NCBI GenBank assembly: GCA_041742355.1
Contig: JBGSIV010000289.1
Coordinates: 1 to 33,665, forward strand
DNA from: Candidatus Zixiibacteriota bacterium
GTDB lineage: Bacteria; Zixibacteria; MSB-5A5; GN15; FEB-12
Direction: 5' to 3'
Length of the DNA stretch: 33,665 nucleotides
Made by a program: the position numbers and the translations under genes. Positions within the stretch are counted from its first letter, which is position 1. Each line of letters begins with the position of its first letter. Positions 19,575-29,296 of this stretch are shown piece by piece. The notes under the pieces were generated by a model. It was not told the DNA's origin and made no database searches. It saw only the letters and a program-made list of their open reading frames with translations.

Positions 19575-19604
19575 TGTCACGCTTCGACGACGCTCAGCGT
19601 GACA
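19575..19604. repeat. Palindromic repeat GTCAC..TTCGAC..CGCTCAG..GTGAC
   Basis: Related copies at 20872-20899 and 25976-26003; fragments at 968-978 and 991-1001. Confidence 0.75.
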
Positions 19605-19628
19605 GACATAACGATAGGAGTACGAACC

Positions 19629-20774
19629 ATGAGCAGCCCCCTCGGTATTCGTGGATATGATTACGTGGAGTTCTATGTCGGCTCCGCCAAGATGACCGCA
19701 TTCTGGATGGCCAAGGCGCTCGGGCTGCAAATCACCGGGTACTGCGGCCCCGAAACGGGCATCCGTGACCGGGTCTCCTACTATCTCACCCGCCACCGCC
19801 TCAAGTTTGTCGTCACGTCGCCCGCCCAGCCGTCCAGCTACGACATCTACGGTTGGATCACTAAACACGGCGACGGCGTCAAGCGGTGGGCGGTCGAGGT
19901 GGACAATGTCGAGCAGGCGTGGAAGTACGCCACCAAGCGCGGCGCGGTGATGGTCAAGCGCCCCGAACGGATCGAGAACCAGCACGGCTTTATTGAGGAA
20001 GGATCGATCCGGCTCTACGATGACACCGAGCTGGTGTATATCAACCGTGATAATTACAAGCACATCTTCCGCCCCGGTTTCTGCGAACCACTCCAGAAGA
20101 TCAACATCGAGCACGAGGACACCGGCCTGCTGGCGGTCGACCACATTGTCGGCAACGTCCGCGAGAATGAAATGGGGCTCTGGGCCGAGTATTTCAACAA
20201 CACGATGGATTTCGAGACGTTTGTCGATTTCGGCCCCGGCGACATCCAGACCCAGTACTCCTCGCTCCTGTCGAAAGTGGTGCGCACGAAGGATTCCAAG
20301 ATCCGCAACCCGATCAACGAGCCGTATGAGGGGCTGAAGAAGTCGCAGATCGAGGAGTTTATCGAGCAGTACCACGGTTCCGGCGTGCAGCACATAGCGA
20401 TCCGCACCAACCACATTATCGACAGCATCGCCGCGCTGCGCAAAAACGGGATCGAGTTCCTCACTGTCCCAGACACGTACTATGACAAGCTGCGCGAGCG
20501 CAAGGAAGTGATGAGCCGCCTGCAGGAAGATCTCAACGTGCTCAAGGAGCACGGCATTTTGTGCGATGTCGAGGCCGACGGTTACCTGCTCCAGTTGTTT
20601 ACCAAGCCGATCGGCGATCGCCCGACATTCTTTTTAGAGATCATTCAGCGAGTCGGCAACAGCGAGGGTTTCGGCAAGGGGAATTTCCAGGCGCTGTTCG
20701 AGTCGATCGAGCTGGATCAGAAGTTGCGCGGCAATTTGGAGAAAGACCAGATTGCGCATGCGCCGATTTGCTAG
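19629..20774 (+). CDS. hppD: 4-hydroxyphenylpyruvate dioxygenase
   Basis: Motifs HGDGVK, VDHIVGNV, PINEP...KSQIEEF, GVQHIA, GYLLQLFTKP, FLEIIQR and GFGKGNFQALFESIE; GGAG RBS. Confidence 0.96.
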   Translation: MSSPLGIRGYDYVEFYVGSAKMTAFWMAKALGLQITGYCGPETGIRDRVSYYLTRHRLKFVVTSPAQPSSYDIYGWITKHGDGVKRWAVEVDNVEQAWKYATKRGAVMVKRPERIENQHGFIEEGSIRLYDDTELVYINRDNYKHIFRPGFCEPLQKINIEHEDTGLLAVDHIVGNVRENEMGLWAEYFNNTMDFETFVDFGPGDIQTQYSSLLSKVVRTKDSKIRNPINEPYEGLKKSQIEEFIEQYHGSGVQHIAIRTNHIIDSIAALRKNGIEFLTVPDTYYDKLRERKEVMSRLQEDLNVLKEHGILCDVEADGYLLQLFTKPIGDRPTFFLEIIQRVGNSEGFGKGNFQALFESIELDQKLRGNLEKDQIAHAPIC

Positions 20775-20778
20775 GGGA

Positions 20779-20819
20779 GTAGGTCGGGTTCCGAGGAGCG
20801 CAGCGACGAGAAACCCGAT
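20779..20819 (+). repeat. GTAG REP family A copy immediately after hppD
   Basis: GTAGGTCGGGTTCCGAGGAGCGCAGCGACGAGAAACCCGAT. Confidence 0.8.
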
Positions 20820-20871
20820 TTGACAACGCGAACTGGCGGGTCGCCCACAGCTTGCTGTGGGATCCTCAAAT

Positions 20872-20899
20872 GTCACCCTTCGACTCCGCTCAGGGTGAC
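20872..20899. repeat. Palindromic repeat GTCACCCTTCGACTCCGCTCAGGGTGAC
   Basis: Near-identical to 25976-26003. Confidence 0.8.
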
Positions 20900-20958
20900 G
20901 GAATGGCAGGTCAAACACGGCCCTGCGTGCTTGACGGATTCAACGGACGATTTACCAT

Positions 20959-20988
20959 GTCAAGCACCGAGACCGGTGCTTGACCTAC
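20959..20988 (-). repeat. GTAG REP copy (GTCAAGCACC stem)
   Basis: Same stem and tag as 1052-1081, different loop. Confidence 0.8.
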
Positions 20989-21063
20989 CGTGGATTCGAG
21001 GAAGGTCGTGCACGGCTCCGAGTGGTTGACGGGAAAGAAGAAAGGGACTGGATTCCTGCTTTC

Positions 21064-21215
21064 GGGCTTGTTGAAAAAGCCCGAGCGCGGCTGTTGGCAG
21101 TCATTGCGAGGAGCGGAGCGACGAAGCAATCTCTCTTCGTACCAGCGTCTTGGCCAGAGGAGAGATTGCTTCGCTGCGCTCGCAATGACTAGTCATAGAC
21201 TTTTTCAACAGGCCC
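21064..21215 (+). mobile_element. 152-bp non-autonomous MITE with 16-bp TIRs and a 4-bp TSD (TTTC)
   Basis: Left end GGGCTTGTTGAAAAAG and right end CTTTTTCAACAGGCCC (15/16 inverted match); TTTC at 21060-21063 and 21216-21219; second copy at 1-141; internal inverted doublet at 21099-21190. Confidence 0.88.
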
Positions 21216-21322
21216 TTTCGCAGGAATGACAGTTTCAGGCGTTCACGCTGAGAAAGTGCGGGGCCATAAAGGTCGTGGCCGGCGACGCGAGCAGGAATGA
21301 CAGATCCAAGTATCGGCGTGAA

Positions 21323-21415
21323 TCAATGTCAGGACCATAAAGGTCCTGACCTACAACAGGAACCTACATTTCAATGCCTTCTTGTAGGTCAGGACCCTTG
21401 CGGTCCTGACATTGA
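21323..21415. repeat. Inverted REP doublet (REPIN-like)
   Basis: TCAATGTCAGGACC-N-GGTCCTGACCTACAA and its inverse TTGTAGGTCAGGACC-N-GGTCCTGACATTGA, separated by 25 bp. Confidence 0.8.
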
Positions 21416-21504
21416 CCTACACGCGAAGCTCAGGTGACGTCAGAGCGCAGGTGACATCGATACGCGGAACAAAGTCCGGGCTTTACATACGAAAGGAACT
21501 CGCA

Positions 21505-22674
21505 ATGTCGTTCTATCACCGACTGGGCGAACTGCCCAAGGTCAAACATACGACCTTCTTTAAACCCGACGGGAAGTCGCTCTACCGCGAGGAGCTCTTC
21601 TCGAGCAAGGGGTTCTCCGGCGAGTACTCCACCAAGTACCACCATCACATGCCGACCGAAATCCTTCGGTCGCGCGAGATCAACCTCCACAAAGATGTCG
21701 AGTGGCCGGAAGCGCAGGTCCTCTACTACCACTTTTTCACCGACAACAAGGAAAGCGGCGGCAATTACATCACCGCCCGCGATTCCTATCTCGAGAATCC
21801 GCACACGGTAATATCTGCCGCCAGAGTCACAGAGGATACCGACGATTTCTACCGTAACGGATTTGCCGCCGAGTACATCCTTGTCCACCGCGGCCGCGGC
21901 GTCTTCAAGAGCGAATTCGGCAACATTCCGTTTGAGCCGGGCGACCAGTTCATTATCCCGCGCGCGGTCACCTACCAGCTCAAGTTCGACGACTTCAAGG
22001 ACAACAAGCTGCTGGTGGTCGAATCCGACACGGCGTATGAGATCCCCGGCAAGTTCCGCAACGAGCATGGCCAGCTTGAGGAGCACGCCCCGTACAGCGA
22101 GCGGGATTTCAAGGTCCCGAGTGTGCTCGAGCCGAAAGATGAAACGGGGGAATTCCGCATAATCCTCAAGACCGGCCGCCGGTACTTCGAACACATCTCC
22201 CCACATCATCCGTTCGATGTTGTCGGCTGGGACGGTTTCCTCTACCCGTATGCGTTCAATATCAAGAGCTACCATCCGAAAGTCGGCCGCATCCACCTGC
22301 CGCCGCCGGTCCATGTCGCCTGGCGCACCGGGAATTTCGTGCTCTGCAACTTCTGCCCGCGGCCGTTCGATTTCCACGAACAGGCGATCCCGGCCCCCTA
22401 TGTCCACTCCAACATCGACAGCGACGAGGTCCTGTACTATGTTGAAGGCGACTTCATGTCCCGCGAGGGGGTCAAAGAGGGCTCGATCACGCTTCATCCC
22501 GGCGGCATGCCGCACGGCCCCCAGCCGGGCAAAACCGAGGCGTCGATCGGCAAGAAGGGGACGGACGAGTACGCCGTGATGATCGACACCTACTCCCCGC
22601 TTCGCCCGACGCTGAATGTGAAGGAGACGATCGATCCCTGCTACGCCCAGTCCTGGATCGAAGCGGCAAAATGA
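21505..22674 (+). CDS. hmgA: Homogentisate 1,2-dioxygenase
   Basis: Motifs EHAPYSERDF, HHPFDVVGWDG, GRIHLPPPVH, PYVHSNIDSDEVLYY, SITLHPGGMPHGP and AVMIDT; AAGGA RBS. Confidence 0.94.
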   Translation: MSFYHRLGELPKVKHTTFFKPDGKSLYREELFSSKGFSGEYSTKYHHHMPTEILRSREINLHKDVEWPEAQVLYYHFFTDNKESGGNYITARDSYLENPHTVISAARVTEDTDDFYRNGFAAEYILVHRGRGVFKSEFGNIPFEPGDQFIIPRAVTYQLKFDDFKDNKLLVVESDTAYEIPGKFRNEHGQLEEHAPYSERDFKVPSVLEPKDETGEFRIILKTGRRYFEHISPHHPFDVVGWDGFLYPYAFNIKSYHPKVGRIHLPPPVHVAWRTGNFVLCNFCPRPFDFHEQAIPAPYVHSNIDSDEVLYYVEGDFMSREGVKEGSITLHPGGMPHGPQPGKTEASIGKKGTDEYAVMIDTYSPLRPTLNVKETIDPCYAQSWIEAAK

Positions 22675-22783
22675 TGTCGGGCGGGCTGTCCGGCGGCGGT
22701 TTCTGCTGGCACTTCGGGCCGGAAAATGGCATATTGCGGTTCGACATGATTATCCGACCGCCCGAATGCTAAAGGATAGACTG

Positions 22784-23932
22784 ATGATCTATATACCGGC
22801 CTACGTCAAGTCGCTCGCTCCCTACAAAGCGGGCAAACCGATCGCAGAACTGGCTCGCGAGAGGAACCTTATGCGCATCGTCAAACTCGCCTCCAACGAA
22901 AACCCGCTGGGGCCGTCGCCCAAAGCCATGGCCGCCGTCACCCAGGCGGTCGCGGAGATGCACCGATATCCCGACCCCCGTACCTGGGATCTCGTTCAGG
23001 CGCTGTCGCGCAAGTACGATATCCGCCCCGAACACATTGTCTGCGGCCACGGTACCGACGCCCTGCTCGGCTACGCTATTGGCGCCTTCTCCGAACCGGG
23101 CGATGAACTGCTGACGGCCGAGGGCACGTTTATCGGCATCTATGTCAGCACGCTCAAACAGGGGCGCACGCTGCGCAAAGTGCCGCTCAAAGACTACGCG
23201 TTTGACCTCGAGGCGATCCTCGCCGCAATTGGCCCGAAGACAAAGATCATCTTCCTGGCTAACCCGAACAATCCGACCGGGACCATGGTCACGCGCAAGG
23301 AATTCGAATCTTTCATGGACCGGGTGCCGGAGGATATCCTCGTCATTCTCGACGAGGAGTACTACACTTACGCCGGGCTCTTTCCCGAGTACCCCCAGGG
23401 AGTCTCTTACTGGTACGACAACCTGGTCGTTACCCGCACGCTCTCGAAAGCCTACGGCCTCGGCGGCCTGCGGGTGGGGTTCGCTGTCGGCCCGAGCCAC
23501 GTGATCGACGCGATTTTCAAGGTGCGCTATACGTTCGAGCCGAACTACCTCGCCCAGGTCGCGGCCACGGCCGCGCTCGACGACGACGAATTCCTCGAAC
23601 GCACAGTGAAGACCAACACGGCTTCGTTGAAGCGTATGCGCGCCAGGTTTGACACCCTCGGCATCCGCCAGGTCGACTCCTACGCCAACTTCATCATGAT
23701 CCTCATGCCCTCCCAGACTCTCGCCGAGGAATTCTATCAGCGCTGTCTCGAGCACGGCCTCATTGTCCGGCCGGTTGCCGCCTACGGCGTACCCAACGGC
23801 ATCCGGATCAATTCCGGGACCGAGGATGAAACGACGTTCGCGCTCGAGGTTATCGAAGAGGTCTGGCACGAACTGAACGCGACCGATCCCCGTATCCGCG
23901 AAAGCGAAAAGCACAAGGAAGTCCACCGATGA
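22784..23932 (+). CDS. hisC: Histidinol-phosphate/aromatic aminotransferase (class I/II PLP enzyme, HisC family)
   Basis: Motifs KLASNENPLGPSP, YPDP, LANPNNPTG and RTLSKAYGLGGLRVG (PLP lysine). Alternative start at 22766. Confidence 0.88.
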   Translation: MIYIPAYVKSLAPYKAGKPIAELARERNLMRIVKLASNENPLGPSPKAMAAVTQAVAEMHRYPDPRTWDLVQALSRKYDIRPEHIVCGHGTDALLGYAIGAFSEPGDELLTAEGTFIGIYVSTLKQGRTLRKVPLKDYAFDLEAILAAIGPKTKIIFLANPNNPTGTMVTRKEFESFMDRVPEDILVILDEEYYTYAGLFPEYPQGVSYWYDNLVVTRTLSKAYGLGGLRVGFAVGPSHVIDAIFKVRYTFEPNYLAQVAATAALDDDEFLERTVKTNTASLKRMRARFDTLGIRQVDSYANFIMILMPSQTLAEEFYQRCLEHGLIVRPVAAYGVPNGIRINSGTEDETTFALEVIEEVWHELNATDPRIRESEKHKEVHR

Positions 23933-24960
23933 AGTTTGTTTCTTTCGCCAATTCCGTCAATGAAGAACGCCTTGGATTATTCTACAACGACCAGATTTTC
24001 GACCTCGCGCAGAACGCGCTGACGGTCGCTGTCCGGCTCCCCTCGACGATGGCGGAATTTCTCCGCCAGGGCGAGGCCGGTATGGAAACCGCCCGTAAGG
24101 TCCACGACGCCATTGTCGATGGCCGTGGTATTCCCGAGGACTCCGGCAACCTGGCCATGCTCGCGCCCGTGCCGCACCCGACCTCGTGTCGCGACGGCTA
24201 CGCCTTCCGCCAGCATGTCGCCACCGCCCGCCGCAACCGCGGTGTTGAGATGATTCCCGAATTCGACCAGTATCCCGTCTTCTACTTCACCAACCACAAC
24301 TCGATCATCGGTGAAGGGGATGTGCTGGTCGAGAAGGACCATCTCCAGAAGCTCGATTTCGAACTCGAGTGCGCCATAGTTCTGCATACGCAGGGACGGA
24401 ACATTCCCGCTTCGGAGGCGGACCGCTACATCGCCGGGTACATGATCATGAACGACCTCTCCGCGCGGGTTCTCCAGATGGAGGAGATGATGTTGAGCCT
24501 CGGCCCGGCCAAGGGCAAGGACTTCGCGACGTCGATCGGCCCCTGGCTCGTCACTCCCGATGAACTGGCGAACCGGCGCATGGCCACCCCCTTCGGCGAC
24601 AAGTACGATCTGCGCATGACCGCCAAACACAACGGCACGCTCGTTTCCGACGGCAATCTCAAGGACATGAACTGGACGTTTGCCGAAATCGTCGAACGCG
24701 CCTCGTACGGTGTCGATGTCTACCCCGGCGACGTCATCGGCTCCGGCACGGTCGGCACCGGCTGCTACCTCGAGCTCAACGGCACCCGGGCGATCGAAGC
24801 GAAGCAGCGTGGCGAGTCGTTTACGCCGGTCTGGCTGAACGACGGCGACACGATCGAGCTGGCGATCGACGGGCTGGGCGTGCTGCGCAACCGCATCGTC
24901 AAAGCTGGCGGCGATTACTCGATCCTCGCGAAGAAGAAGTCGGTCGAAACGGTCTCCTGA
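23929..24960 (+). CDS. Fumarylacetoacetate hydrolase family protein
   Basis: Motifs RDGYAFRQHV, PVFYFTNH, LDFELE, NDLSAR..Q, KGKDFAT and GDVIGSGTVGTGC; ATGA overlap with the upstream gene. Confidence 0.93.
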   Translation: MKFVSFANSVNEERLGLFYNDQIFDLAQNALTVAVRLPSTMAEFLRQGEAGMETARKVHDAIVDGRGIPEDSGNLAMLAPVPHPTSCRDGYAFRQHVATARRNRGVEMIPEFDQYPVFYFTNHNSIIGEGDVLVEKDHLQKLDFELECAIVLHTQGRNIPASEADRYIAGYMIMNDLSARVLQMEEMMLSLGPAKGKDFATSIGPWLVTPDELANRRMATPFGDKYDLRMTAKHNGTLVSDGNLKDMNWTFAEIVERASYGVDVYPGDVIGSGTVGTGCYLELNGTRAIEAKQRGESFTPVWLNDGDTIELAIDGLGVLRNRIVKAGGDYSILAKKKSVETVS

Positions 24961-24977
24961 TCGCGGCAGACACAACC

Positions 24978-25949
24978 ATGTTGAGCTTTGAACCAAAAGA
25001 CCTCCCTGTCCCGAAAGTCCACCAGTACCTGCTGGGCGGTGTCGGCCCGCGACCGATAGCGCTGGTCTCGACTGTCTCGGTCGACGGCGCGGTGAACCTT
25101 TCGCCGTTCTCTTTCTTCAATGCATTCGGCGCCAATCCGCCGATCGTCGCTTTTTCGCCCGCCCGACGCGGCCGTGACGGCACGGTCAAGGACACGTACA
25201 GCAACCTGATCGCCACCCGCGAGTGCGTGATTCAGGCGGTGACCTACAGCATGGTCCACCAGGTCTCGCTCGCCTCGGCCGAGTATCCGTCCGAGGTCGA
25301 CGAATTCGTCAAGAGCGGCCTGACGGCTGTCCCCTCCGATCTGGTCAAGCCGCCGCGCGTCGGCGAGTCCCCGTTCCACATGGAGTGCCGCCTGCGGCAG
25401 ATGGTCGAGCTGGGTGGCCTGCCTGCATCGGGCAACCTCGCGATCTGCGAGGTCGTTAAGTTTCACATCGCCGAGGATATCCTGCGCGACGGCGTCATTC
25501 ACCCCGACCAGATCGACCTTGTCGCGCGCATGAGCGCGGCGTTCTACTGCCGTGCCACGGGCAGTGCGATTTTCGAACTCCCTCAGCCGGGCGCGCGCAA
25601 GTGTATCGGCTTTGATGCCCTTCCCGAGTACATTCGCACCTCGCACGTGCTCTCGGGCAACAACCTCGCTCAGCTGGCGGCGGTTGAGGCGATCCCTGAT
25701 ACAGAGGCGGCAGTGGCAACGGTCGGAGCGATGGCTCACGAGAGTCCGGGCGTGGCGCTGTTTGAACGCTTTGCGCGCCGCCGTCTGCATCTGGAGATGC
25801 TCCGGGTTGCCGTGGGGCTCAAGTGCGCGGGCCATCCCAACGCCGCTGCTTTCATGGAGCAAAGCGCGAAAGCCGCTCTTGACAACAACGACGTGGCGTT
25901 TGCGTGGAACGCGCTGTTGTACCTGGGGCGTTTGAAACACCAGGTCTGA
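24978..25949 (+). CDS. Flavin reductase-like (DIM6/NTAB) family protein with a C-terminal extension
   Basis: Motifs PRPIALVST, NLSPFSFFN, KDTYSN, EVDEF..SGLT, VKPPRVGESP..MEC, IGFDALP and VLSGNNL. Confidence 0.9.
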   Translation: MLSFEPKDLPVPKVHQYLLGGVGPRPIALVSTVSVDGAVNLSPFSFFNAFGANPPIVAFSPARRGRDGTVKDTYSNLIATRECVIQAVTYSMVHQVSLASAEYPSEVDEFVKSGLTAVPSDLVKPPRVGESPFHMECRLRQMVELGGLPASGNLAICEVVKFHIAEDILRDGVIHPDQIDLVARMSAAFYCRATGSAIFELPQPGARKCIGFDALPEYIRTSHVLSGNNLAQLAAVEAIPDTEAAVATVGAMAHESPGVALFERFARRRLHLEMLRVAVGLKCAGHPNAAAFMEQSAKAALDNNDVAFAWNALLYLGRLKHQV

Positions 25950-26957
25950 TCTTGTCTTCCTGCGGGTGACGCTGCGTTACCCTTCGACTCCGCTCAAGGT
26001 GACCGCTCTTAGCGTTGGGTTTCGCGGAGGTGAAGTTCGTCGTCACCAAGTCGGGTTTCTCGGGGCTTGCGCCCCTCGGAACACCGACCTACGTCCAAAA
26101 CCCATTTGGTTCGTTTGCGCATTTTCCCGTCTCCGGGTTTGTGTCGCTGTCAGGCCGCAAGCGGCCTGACCTACCTCCAAGAATTGGGTTTGTTCGCGAC
26201 CGCTCGGGGGTGACACAAGGCCACCCCCTACGCGCTTGAAGGGTGACGCATCGACACATTGGGTTCGTTTGCGCAGTAGTCGCTCGTTCATTGCTTGTCT
26301 CCCAGTCGGGTTTCTCGGGGTCTTCGACCCCTCGGAACCCGACCTACGCCCAAGCCCCATTGGGTTCGTCGGCGCACTATCTCAGCAGCGTTCAAATCTC
26401 TCCCCTGTCTTTCTGTCTGAGAGGAACCCACCAGGAATGGTGGGCCACCGGAGGGGACGCCGGAAATTGGGTTCGTTCGCGCAATTTCTAGTCTCCATGG
26501 TTGTGTGGCTGTCAGGCCGCAAGCGGCCTGACCTACGAACCAGAAATCGGGTTCGTTTGGTAATCCTGGCATACAGTAGACCTCGGCGTGACTGGGGCCC
26601 GGCCTCCGCCGGGCTGACAGAATAGGATTCCATGCCGTCTCCGCGGGAAAGACAGTGTGGATTCTCCTCCTCCAGCTGATTGACAGCAAAGGGCGTCGGG
26701 CTGTCAGCGGGGAGCTTTGTGCTTGAAATTGGGTTCGTGTGCGTAAACTCCCTGTTTCGGGTTCTCGCTTTGACAGGCTCCAAGGAGCCCGACCTACTTC
26801 GCCGATCAACTTCTTCGCTTAACTTCCCCGGCCTGTTTCCGTGACCTTCCTGGCTGTTACCCATGTAGTCGTTTCAGCCGGTTACCTCTGTATCCGGTTT
26901 GTGCCGGAATCTTCTCCCACCGCGAGCGGTGGGGCACCCGTGCCACAGGAGCATGTG

Positions 26958-26999
26958 TTTACACTCCTTCATTTACACTCTCTTCTTTACACTCTTTCC
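26958..26999. repeat. 3 x 14-bp direct repeat with a TTTACACTC core
   Basis: TTTACACTC at 26958, 26972 and 26986, followed by TATATATA and a G-run. Confidence 0.8.
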
Positions 27000-27387
27000 T
27001 ATATATACCGGGGGGGCGGGGCAATCTCCATCAAAAGGCACGTGAAAGGGGGCAGAATCAACGGTGATGTGCCGTCGTGCGAGAGAGTGAATACAGTGCT
27101 ATGTGAGGACTTAGTGTTTTGAACGACAGAAGTGGGGATTTTCAAAGGTCGGAAATGCCAGGGAAATTGGGAGCGTGCGGCGAGGGCGGTTTTTTTGATG
27201 GCAGCGGGCATGGGGGATGGTGCCGGTTTTTCTGGAGGTCGGTTAGAGAGTCACGCCGTGAGCGGTTTGATCTATTGTCGGGTTTCTCGGGGCTTACGCC
27301 CCTCGGAACCCGACCTACGTATTGGGTTCGTTTGGTAATCTCGGCATACGGTGAGCCTGAGCGTGACTGGGGCCCGGCCTCCGCCGA

Positions 27388-27445
27388 GCTGACAGAACAG
27401 GAGCTCAGGCTGACAGAACAGGAGCCCGGGCCGACAGAGAAGGGG
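27388..27445. repeat. 21-bp tandem repeat GCTGACAGAACAGGAGC....
   Basis: Units at 27388, 27409 and a degenerate one at 27430. Confidence 0.7.
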
Positions 27446-27727
27446 CGGGCGGACAGGGAGCGGTCTCTCTGCTCGCAATTGGATTTGTGTGTGCGATCTC
27501 GAGGTGTCTGGGATGTCGGGTTTCTTGGGGCTTACGCCCCTCGGAACCCGACCTACGATGTTAAAGATTTCCCGTCACGGGAGAAGGCACGACCGCTGAA
27601 GGGTCGTGCCCTGCGTTGTGCCCTATGTCGTGCTGTAGTCTCTCTCCACCGCAAAACGTGGGCAAAGAAACGTGCCGGTGGCAACACCGGCCCGTTCTGA
27701 CACAAATTCTGCGAGGCACTTCAGCGG

Positions 27728-29296
27728 CTAGAATCCCTGAGTAACGTATACGCCCCGCTGCTGGAGTGCCCGGACCTGAGTTTCGGCCGCCTCGACCGAA
27801 AGAGGATTGGCGTGCAACATCACGGTGTCACCGGATGCAAGGCCCGCATTGTTCACAAGCGCCGCGATATCGGTGATCTGGTTACCGGCCAGATCGAGGT
27901 AGTGCAGGTTGGTCAGGTTCTGCAGCGCCGAGAGATTCGATATCTGGTTGCTTCTCAGATTCAACCGCCACATTCCGGTCGCCGACGCCAGCGGCGCGAT
28001 GTTCTGGATCTGGTTGTACGACAGATCGACATCCCACAGCCACTGCATCGATGACAGCGCCGTGATGCTGGTAATCGAGTTGGAGTACAGGCTCAGTGTC
28101 GACAGCGACGTCAGTGAGGCGAGGGGTGATATGTCGGTTATCGCGTTCCCCTGGATCGAGAGCGAGTAGAGGCTCTTCAGATCGCGCAGCGGACCGAGAT
28201 CGCTGAAGTCGTTGTACCCGGCGTCAAGGACGCCAAGATTCTGCAGCACGCCTATGCCTGCGATACTGCTCACCGGCCACTCCACGAAATCGAGGCGGTA
28301 CATCTTCAGCGCTTCCGACAGGTGGATGTTCGAATCGGTCGTGCCCCAATAGTTACTGGCCACGACATCGCGGAACACCGGATCGGGAAATACCAGCACC
28401 GAGTCCTTGACCGGATCGATGATCAGTTCCGAGGACTCAAACCAGATCCCGCCCGGCAACTCCTGCGTGAGCGTCAGCCACGTTTGGAACTCGACGAATC
28501 CCAGGGGAATGATAAGCGTGCTGGAATCGGTATCGGTGAATTTGTTGGTCGCAAACGGCATCGTTGCCAGCACCGTGCCGCCCCGGGCCAGCGGGAACAC
28601 ACCGCCGCTCGAATCGGTGATGGTCACGCGGTACTGCGTGTTGTCGTTGTCTCCGCCGGAGTAGAAGTACTCTGTCGCCGGGAACCACGCGGGCGCCGTT
28701 CCATCGAGCGGATCAACGGCGTTGTTACCGCCGGGGTAGATTCCGTAACCGTAGTCGAACACGGCGTTCACGCCCGACAGGCCCGGCATGTTGTACGCTC
28801 TCAGCTCGAGACGGAACGTATCCCCCGCCGTGATCCGCGTCACCATCGGGGTCAACTTCAGCATCGGCAATGCCGGGATCAGCGTGATCCCCACGGTCGT
28901 CACGCGGCTCGGCGAGACATCCATGGTTGTCTGCCCGACGTACAGGAGGGTCGCTCCCACCGGCTGCTGCTGCGGCGCACCAATTACCGGCGCGACCTCC
29001 TTGTACAGCTCCAGCACGAACGTGCGCGACCGCCCTACGGGGATCTCGGCCCGCAGTTCAAAGGTGCCGTCGGGCTGGACTCTGGCGGTCGTGTCGATCG
29101 CTTCCATGTCGGGTCCGGTCACTTGCAGCGCCGCCCACAGGCTGTCGATCGGCTGCTGCTGCAGGAGTTTCGGCGACTCGACATCGATCGCGAACTGCAC
29201 CACGCCCCCGCCCGAACCGGTCGGCTCCTCGGTGCACCCGGCCAACAGCGCCAGTGTCGCGAAGAGCGCGAGAGTCAGCAGAATATGCTTCTTCAT
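27728..29296 (-). CDS. Lipoprotein with a cohesin-like domain and internalin-type leucine-rich repeats
   Basis: Lipobox LLAGC; AGDTFRLELRAYN..GLSG...FDY...GTVLATMPF (cohesin-like); FPDP cap and about six 22-aa LxxLxxLxLxxNxIxDI repeats; AGGAGG RBS. Confidence 0.85.
   Translation of the reverse strand: MKKHILLTLALFATLALLAGCTEEPTGSGGGVVQFAIDVESPKLLQQQPIDSLWAALQVTGPDMEAIDTTARVQPDGTFELRAEIPVGRSRTFVLELYKEVAPVIGAPQQQPVGATLLYVGQTTMDVSPSRVTTVGITLIPALPMLKLTPMVTRITAGDTFRLELRAYNMPGLSGVNAVFDYGYGIYPGGNNAVDPLDGTAPAWFPATEYFYSGGDNDNTQYRVTITDSSGGVFPLARGGTVLATMPFATNKFTDTDSSTLIIPLGFVEFQTWLTLTQELPGGIWFESSELIIDPVKDSVLVFPDPVFRDVVASNYWGTTDSNIHLSEALKMYRLDFVEWPVSSIAGIGVLQNLGVLDAGYNDFSDLGPLRDLKSLYSLSIQGNAITDISPLASLTSLSTLSLYSNSITSITALSSMQWLWDVDLSYNQIQNIAPLASATGMWRLNLRSNQISNLSALQNLTNLHYLDLAGNQITDIAALVNNAGLASGDTVMLHANPLSVEAAETQVRALQQRGVYVTQGF

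Follow-up and report, generated by a model that had tools for sequence, protein, structure and literature searches.

Structure of the locus

The window analyzed here, a 33,665-nucleotide stretch of a Candidatus Zixiibacteriota genome (assembly GCA_041742355.1, contig JBGSIV010000289.1, forward strand), carries between a flavin-reductase-like gene and a leucine-rich repeat (LRR) gene an array in which a short constant DNA motif alternates with repetitive extragenic palindromic (REP) hairpins. Intact, the mobile unit behind this array consists of a conserved head, one gene (the cassette gene) and the motif; the array itself is the 3' end of a derivative without the gene, and the present genome has the motif end in amplified form, its copies separated by REP hairpins. 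The features of the locus are the following, listed for the element from its head onward.

26924 to 27098, minus (read from 27098 to 26924): head, the conserved 5' end with a putative promoter, core box at about 26990-27060 (nhmmer E 1e-27)
26958 to 26998, no strand assigned: three 14-bp tandem copies of the head's 3' edge
26765 to 26797, minus: REP-B hairpin preceding end motif copy 1
26728 to 26744, minus: end motif copy 1 in the element direction, reading AAACGAACCCAAT on the minus strand (23.1 bits)
26546 to 26627, minus: unit of family B, GTCA-type hairpin 26590-26620, linker, motif 26546-26562
26466 to 26545, minus: unit of family F, GTAG REP-C hairpin 26511-26536, linker, motif 26466-26482
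26359 to 26465, minus: unit of family D, GTGG hairpin 26424-26447, linker, motif 26359-26375
26258 to 26358, minus: unit of family G, GTAG REP-A hairpin 26305-26347, linker, motif 26258-26274
26183 to 26257, minus: unit of family I, GTAG hairpin 26200-26232, motif 26183-26199
26104 to 26182, minus: unit of family F, GTAG REP-C hairpin 26149-26174, linker, distal strong motif 26104-26120
26050 to 26092, minus: GTAG REP-A hairpin past the last strong motif
27277 to 27614, minus: second block, head-less, upstream of the head
27586 to 27614, minus: R3-type REP of the second block, the type that flanks the REP-associated tyrosine transposase (RAYT) gene on contig C214
27515 to 27556, minus: REP-A of the second block
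27478 to 27494, minus: weak motif of the second block
27321 to 27337, minus: motif of the family-B unit of the second block
27277 to 27318, minus: REP-A of the second block
26104, 26183, 26258, 26359, 26466, 26546, 26728, 27321 and 27478, plus: the motif copies as found by position weight matrix (PWM) scan
24978 to 25949, plus: flavin-reductase-like host gene outside the element (PF01613, E 6e-19)
27728 to 29296, minus: LRR protein host gene outside the element (PF12799, E 3e-21)

A sequence-only reading of this DNA had described a polarised array that is not of the CRISPR type, and in both respects it was right, but it overlooked the head inside its own coordinates and the associated gene. 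The PWM scan gave nine motif copies, all on the plus strand, and reproduced the spacings reported for the first block (79, 75, 101, 107, 80 and 182 bp), whereas a candidate copy at 26015 scored below 7 bits. Allowing at most two mismatches, TTGGGTTCGTTT matched nine times in the window (eight matches in the array, one at 249) against 1.9 expected, and none of 100 shuffles attained nine matches. The duplications pointed out in that reading were recovered with identities of 82% (26104-26191 and 26466-26553), 87% (26546-26627 and 27321-27402) and, for the junction, 76% (26042-26126 and 26297-26381), and the hairpins do lie inside the inter-motif intervals with their GTAG or GTGG tags on the minus strand.

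Misassembly and a repetitive coding sequence, two ways in which that reading might have failed, were both excluded. Overlapping Logan contig pieces from run X1, possibly the source sample, and from the separate sample X2 were 100% identical over 25300-26173, 26205-27306 and 27357-28200, so that most joints were reproduced, those at 26174-26204 and 27307-27356 being uncovered among the Logan matches listed. The 128 inter-motif spacings of the genome, taken modulo 3, were distributed 39/43/46. An Rfam search of the array returned nothing up to E=1.

Motif arrays and REP hairpins in the genome

In the 4.37-Mb genome the PWM found 204 motif copies, against 4 in the reversed genome. These copies form 74 clusters dispersed over many contigs, and 40 of the 42 clusters with several copies lie on one strand, so the polarity seen in the window is genome-wide. 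On the minus strand of the locus a unit reads as REP hairpin, purine-rich linker and AAACGAACCCAAT. With spacings ranging from 37 to 593 bp, 106 of the 128 inter-motif segments fell into 12 recurring REP-plus-linker families common to several arrays; 20 others were singletons or pairs and 2 were too short. These figures do not bear out the suggestion that the motif collects cassettes, since the units were inherited and reshuffled rather than uniquely acquired. Unit order was biased, family B standing ahead of F (10:0), A (7:1) and D (6:1), and the pooled figure of 100:22 overstates this bias because the majority direction was chosen for each pair.

The REPs are mostly found outside arrays, the motif standing just 5' of 17/28 copies in family A, 9/59 in B, 15/46 in C and 10/46 in F, and within 120 nt of a motif these four families had no copy on the opposite strand. 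Five RAYT matches were present in the draft genome (L001-L005; the C233 copy is broken), each with its own, different REP family. REP types A-F were absent from the 300 nt on each side of the RAYT genes, and types H and R3 were the only ones both flanking a RAYT gene and occurring at arrays. The hairpins are best regarded as passengers, because in relatives the motif is usually single and because two Planctomycetota repeat the motif at 75 or 79 bp without a REP in the copies inspected.

A box of the form TG(C/T)(A/G)CA abuts 51 of 180 motifs and occurs in 15/24 protease promoters and 0/25 portal promoters. Inspection spoke against reading the motif as a sigma-54 site, as the GG-N10-GC spacing of the sigma-54 consensus is not kept in relatives. 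The motif-plus-GTAG pattern is also present in named Zixiibacteriota records. In a collection-wide scan for the pattern, which listed 80 loci, many of them matched by chance, several motifs were present at 14/80 and the cassette gene lay within 1.5 kb at 1/80.

The cassette gene and its tie to the motif

The gene search started from STGP...NALKHG, a motif of hypothetical proteins. Exactly two open reading frames (ORFs) of the genome contain it, on contigs C113 and C185, and both run into an array. In these two copies the order is head, gene, motif, within a unit of about 1.5 kb with one gene; the end motif has the consensus AAAC(G/A)AA(C/G)CCAAT. A third copy, on C111, is broken, and just upstream of it (C111:1667-2721) a head drives two small unrelated ORFs, possibly cargo.

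Neither of the two cassette proteins gave a significant match in Pfam, NCBIfam or PHROGs, and the family, with 49,800 clusters at E<=0.001 and 8,167 at 1e-30, has no Pfam or NCBIfam model. In relatives of the same order the motif lay 3' of the gene in 24 of 28 loci, usually as a single copy near the stop codon, against 1/28 upstream and 1/28 antisense in the controls. Among 40 relatives, 19 had gene and motif, 3 the gene only, 3 the motif only and 15 yielded neither (Fisher p 1.6e-5, a value inflated by kinship). The motif followed the gene in other phyla as well, among them Planctomycetota, which have nearly identical copies and derivatives without the gene: in 5/5 loci of genome G041, four of them with 75-bp repeats, in 13/16 loci of G046, seven with 79-bp pairs, in G044 and on plasmid pPL62-1. 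This cross-phylum sample favors motif carriers, because its genomes were reached through motif matches. Because the motif is tied to one specific gene family, a protein-binding site, one of the roles proposed in the sequence-only reading, is its likeliest function. A plasmid search with the cassette protein gave one match, and the annotated phage collection contained no homolog.

At three G046 loci (L157, L159, L264) a motif pair 79-80 bp apart encloses an AT-rich stretch that resembles the consensus site for integration host factor (IHF) and is reminiscent of lambda cosB.

The head and its promoter

The head is the DNA upstream of the cassette gene and occurs in 54 copies in the genome, that of the window included. 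It lies upstream of 27 of the 42 arrays, and 6 of the other 15 reach a contig edge on that side. Wherever a motif was present up to 1.3 kb downstream of a head, it was on the expected strand (34/34, 34:0). On the strength of the 54 copies and of this polarity, the locus in the window is a head plus array without the gene. Taken together, DNA motif, head and gene form an apparently undescribed mobile unit.

The head motif also stands before the portal gene on C282, the protease gene on C120, a lysin-like ORF on C157 and the genes on C113 and C185. The C157 ORF (57045-57545) stands alone behind its head promoter and is presumably a lysin, an assignment made from its motif. A promoter PWM was trained on 40 portal and protease upstream regions of relatives, with 7 regions of uncertain start left out and with no cassette and no sequence of the genome itself. 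All 25 of its matches at 22 bits or more were heads, as were 34 of 38 at 18 bits or more, and the reversed genome gave 0. Applied to upstream regions of the relatives' cassette genes, the same PWM gave a median of 16.3 (n=26) against -5.3 for control ORFs (n=156), and the top nine of these 156 controls were the PWM training genes themselves. Over about 35 nt the cassette promoter of G039 is nearly identical to the protease promoter of that genome. The head is thus the same type of promoter as that of the conserved portal-terminase and protease-capsid operons of the lineage.

Copy pattern

In G046, six copies of the cassette share 91-96% DNA identity over 1.2-1.75 kb and a common left edge, the right edge lying at the motif in one and up to about 180 nt past it in the others. 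Three of the 21 head matches in this genome are gene-less head-plus-motif units. Five G046 copies showed no target duplication, the best common word being 5-6 nt, which is the chance level. In the class to which G046 belongs, 16 of 61 genomes had between 1 and 38 matches. Within copy families the dN/dS ratio of the cassette gene was 0.12 and 0.39; between families it was 0.66. Movement of the cassette is read from the copy pattern, because no empty site was found.

The cassette protein

The structure predicted for the cassette protein is all-helical (predicted local distance difference test, pLDDT, 82): a pair of helices at the N terminus is followed by a long helical hairpin and then by a C-terminal tail. 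The nearly invariant residues are H36, W83, R84, R87, E92, Y130 and E131. In a four-copy model the chains joined head to tail into an arc by way of the hairpin and the C-terminal residues, residues 1-37 not being part of the listed interface. This model scored 0.76 against 0.00 for the best control; the mark for this score, calibrated on two copies, was attained by 20 of 30 solved pairs and, among 23 single chains, by 1. Contact agreement between runs was at least 64% and pLDDT at least 70. The model describes an arc only, ring closure lying beyond four copies.

Foldseek searches of PDB and viral structures gave no match at E<=0.001, with five terminase-small-subunit rows among the best 50 viral matches (E~1-2). 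VIA-align returned generic hairpins (Z<=8.5), the fold searches gave generic helical matches, and a PDB sequence search with the cassette protein gave nothing relevant. In the Atlas, unnamed clusters matched at 0.94 and clusters with SEC-C motifs at no more than 0.8; the latter, Acidobacteriota proteins at about 0.8, are the nearest named ones and possibly fused relatives. A likeness to Cas1 was rejected, being limited to 9 of 104 family members, below the cut-off and mostly in a variable insert. Y1_Tnp was absent from the 25 Pfam families listed for the 104 members.

Among IMG/VR sequences 20 loci matched, and 11 of them (nine distinct proteins) carry the N-terminal module only, in ORFs upstream of a large ORF of about 600 aa. 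The recurring part is the N-terminal 44 residues. Three of the six full-length large ORFs tested behind the module were the large terminase (TerL; E ~1e-13), and one module-bearing phage ORF at another locus was a phrog_9231 small terminase (TerS; 1.5e-17). These comparisons suggest that the cassette protein shares its N-terminal module with phage small terminases. Together with the predicted fold they point to a small-terminase architecture, in which the module would bind DNA. The cassette genes are not next to terL: those on C113 and C185 run into arrays, and TerL matched on C120 alone.

The resident capsid cluster

The genome has a single phrog_2 TerL match, on C120, preceded by a portal gene and followed by a protease-like gene. 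TerL was found in 40 of 41 genomes, once in each save for one split copy, one of the matches being weak. In the six regions read, gene order and neighbors were identical, the head maturation protease and major head protein included, and no TerS was recognizable beside TerL in any of the six. The cluster of the genome extends over C282, C120, C28, C104 and C112 (L228-L239), with the portal before TerL, a protease fusion, scaffold-like, decoration-like and capsid genes and further genes without assignment; no tail genes were recognized in it. As far as genes can tell, its conserved, single-copy head genes in a fixed chromosomal context resemble those of a gene transfer agent (GTA).

F20, a small helical ORF (C104:3984-4350), scored a weak 12 bits against the ORF directly upstream of TerL in L247 (about 2400-2700) in one post-hoc comparison, and may be the resident TerS, lacking a DNA-binding domain. 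As a homolog of the cassette protein F20 was rejected, the two being unrelated. The L247 locus (G045:C3:366000-385900), from a Bryobacteraceae genome, is a second GTA candidate: housekeeping genes flank a compact TerL-portal-capsid-tail-like cluster, in which inspection by eye showed neither an integrase nor a replication gene. In G046, four terS-terL pairs were seen (L241, L243, L244, L246), three without a portal gene downstream, and one of the four has a cassette fragment 1 kb away, in divergent orientation.

Proposed mechanism and alternatives

The unit is real, genome-wide and cross-phylum, and lies outside every family tested. We propose, with a probability of about 0.42, that it is a parasite with a single gene, from which a GTA-like packaging machine gains sequence specificity, and that the REP hairpins are passengers. 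The proposal builds on the observed linkage, polarity, promoter identity and copy pattern, to which it would add binding, contact with TerL, packaging and integration at new sites. The cassette protein would assemble into a ring like that of small terminases, and its N-terminal module would bind the motif, which would act as a pac-like site where the cassette's own gene ends. Through the copied capsid promoter it would be expressed alongside the resident GTA-like particle and would recruit the resident large terminase, and packaging would begin at the cassette copies, which would be over-transferred. Gene-less copies such as the one in the window would use protein supplied in trans, extra motif copies would add binding sites, and the REPs would ride along and offer homology for shuffling. 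In the weakest step, delivered fragments would recombine at common motif and REP units, leading to shuffling and possibly to new sites.

Several observations weigh against this proposal. Packaging alone does not account for insertion at new sites with a sharp left edge. At 12 of 13 loci of the Bryobacteraceae genome G045 the motif is reversed, being antisense and inside the 3' end of the gene. Outside this order no sharing of the promoter was found: a test in G045 gave a negative result, and in G046 none of the 21 head matches precedes a capsid gene and four TerL loci have no head of their own. phrog_2 TerL, one family searched in draft genomes, was not found in 3 of 5 gene carriers of other phyla. 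The helical core showed no detectable homology to phage proteins in the TerS position (hhalign probability 0.2%), direct matches of the family to TerS were weak, at E 0.0035-0.048 in 4 of 104 members, and the N-terminal match is in part built in, because the phage ORFs were retrieved with that very motif. Downstream of the phage loci with the N-terminal module, the DNA motif was not found.

A cut-and-paste element and a decoy are live rivals of the parasite. It is possible, if unlikely, that the unit is a new insertion-sequence-like element, in which the protein, or a recruited host or RAYT enzyme, cuts and pastes everything from head to motif and the promoter only times expression. The high, patchy copy numbers fit, gene-less derivatives retain both ends as they should, the near-invariant residues could be catalytic, and in the present genome REPs abut the motif and five RAYT genes are at hand. 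The missing target duplication and the shifting right edge argue against it, and HUH and RNase-H folds are excluded for the predicted structure, because the model has no beta strand. Moreover, REPs flanking two intact RAYT genes never adjoin the motif (0/243, 0/32), a REP end just upstream is missing at 35 of 47 heads, and there was no replichore bias (23 vs 17).

It is improbable, though still to be reckoned with, that the protein is an inhibitor, a TerS-like ring poisoning or diverting phage or GTA terminases and so shielding its carriers from phage or lethal GTA induction, with the motifs as decoy or autoregulatory sites. TerS-like anatomy and co-regulation fit this explanation equally, small terminases of satellites are thought to redirect helper packaging (relevant passages of PMC9618062), and no fixed motif orientation would be needed, as in G045; but about 50 gene-less heads and about 40 arrays per genome, and up to 38 gene matches, would be left unexplained. 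More doubtful is that the unit serves the host within the GTA-like system, as an optional subunit for specificity whose dispersed start sites spread packaging over the chromosome. The sharing of the promoter in this order and the dispersal of arrays over many contigs would agree with such a role, as would the discrete packaging peaks, of unknown cause, reported for some GTAs in part of PMC11841831. The gene, however, was not found in 18 of 40 relatives, against TerL in 39 of 40, is often broken or multi-copy and is spread far more widely than the capsid cluster.

Least of all do we expect an ordinary REP mosaic of the bacterial interspersed mosaic element (BIME) kind, or a processed multi-hairpin RNA locus, with an incidental gene link: the hairpins are true GTAG-tagged REPs, mostly outside arrays, tandem REP clusters with flanking DNA have been described (in part of PMC3733652) and the promoter-like head could transcribe the array, but most relatives and other phyla have the motif behind the gene without REPs, all tags are on one strand and not in the inverted pair of a BIME (as given in PMC6006769), there was no Rfam match, and the gene-motif and head-motif links largely refute it.

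Comparison with known systems

Phage satellites such as the SaPI/PICI islands resemble the parasite proposed here in a TerS-like protein proposed to redirect the packaging motor of another element to the DNA of the satellite. The same has been suggested, in the passages of PMC9618062 bearing on it, for the TerS of marine VEIMEs, satellites thought to redirect phage packaging. The cassette differs in being a single gene of about 1.5 kb with no integrase, replication genes or att sites seen, in its dispersal as up to dozens of copies accompanied by gene-less derivatives, and in its apparent helper, a resident GTA-like cluster with which it has a promoter in common. It is like a phage small terminase with a pac site (P22; part of PMC9611059) in its N-terminal module, in the predicted helical-hairpin oligomer with a C-terminal tail and in having an asymmetric DNA motif within its own gene or where that gene ends, and unlike it in that the gene is not beside terL, the core is not detectably homologous and motif binding is predicted.

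Known GTA TerS proteins lack a DNA-binding domain and GTAs have no known packaging start sites, according to passages of PMC6854486 and PMC11841831. The resident cluster resembles RcGTA (PMC6854486), CcGTA (PMC11150451) and the GTAs of PMC11841831, as far as those passages go, in being single-copy, conserved and in a fixed context. In CcGTA dispersed accessory genes are under the activator of the main cluster, the GafY regulon counting about 18 accessory promoters (in part of PMC11150451), to which we liken the lysin-like gene found elsewhere under the promoter of the resident cluster. The cassette would supply what GTAs lack, packaging starts and a TerS DNA-binding domain, for the predicted resident particles.

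REPs, BIMEs and REPINs with their RAYT genes are alike in GTAG- or GTGG-tagged hairpins in intergenic mosaics and in the presence of RAYT genes in the genome. The basic BIME unit is two inverted REPs (PMC6006769) and tandem REP clusters are described in PMC3733652; the passages concerned describe neither the motif nor the head nor the gene. In the present arrays the GTAG-tagged hairpins are direct and not inverted, what defines the unit is a head, a non-HUH gene and a motif that is constant and non-palindromic, and the REPs are dispensable in relatives.

Insertion sequences and miniature inverted-repeat transposable elements (MITEs) comprise gene-bearing autonomous copies and internally deleted copies that keep both ends. 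The cassette is likewise a discrete multi-copy unit with non-autonomous, gene-less derivatives, but neither target duplication nor terminal inverted repeat nor a match to a known transposase family was seen. That the array is not CRISPR, as had been stated, follows from the irregular spacings and from the recurring families found in place of unique spacers; no Rfam repeat matched, and cas genes, sought at the flanks rather than genome-wide, were not there, the flanks being the flavin reductase and LRR genes. An integron cassette array was rejected too, the flanking genes not being integrases and the units being non-coding.

Significance

These results attach a cis motif, a promoter and a mechanism, the last as proposed above, to a family of about 50,000 clusters without a Pfam or NCBIfam model. 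If the mechanism is true, the unit is a genetic parasite of a gene transfer agent, of which we found no report: the literature searched, mostly open-access main texts, described neither the DNA motif nor the protein motif, and neither a GTA of Zixibacteria nor a satellite of GTAs. It would also make testable why GTAs package without sequence specificity and whether selfish DNA can cheat this fairness. Even with the mechanism wrong, the unit is mobile DNA of a new kind, has MITE-like derivatives in several phyla and explains a class of spurious repetitive ORF tails. The odds are somewhat against a still wider possibility, that there is a very large class of one-gene selfish elements parasitizing GTAs or other domesticated capsids, with a copied capsid promoter, a TerS that has the DNA-binding module lost by GTAs, and their own packaging starts, which would multiply by transfer advantage as gene-less arrays.

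Other features of the window

Near the contig start, at 248-325, the window has a strong motif (32 bits) and a REP-A hairpin, probably of another such array. A tyrosine-catabolism-like gene run (19599-25949) ends at the array and includes, by Pfam, aminotransferase, fumarylacetoacetate (FAA) hydrolase and flavin-reductase-like genes, and, by eye, dioxygenase-like ORFs.
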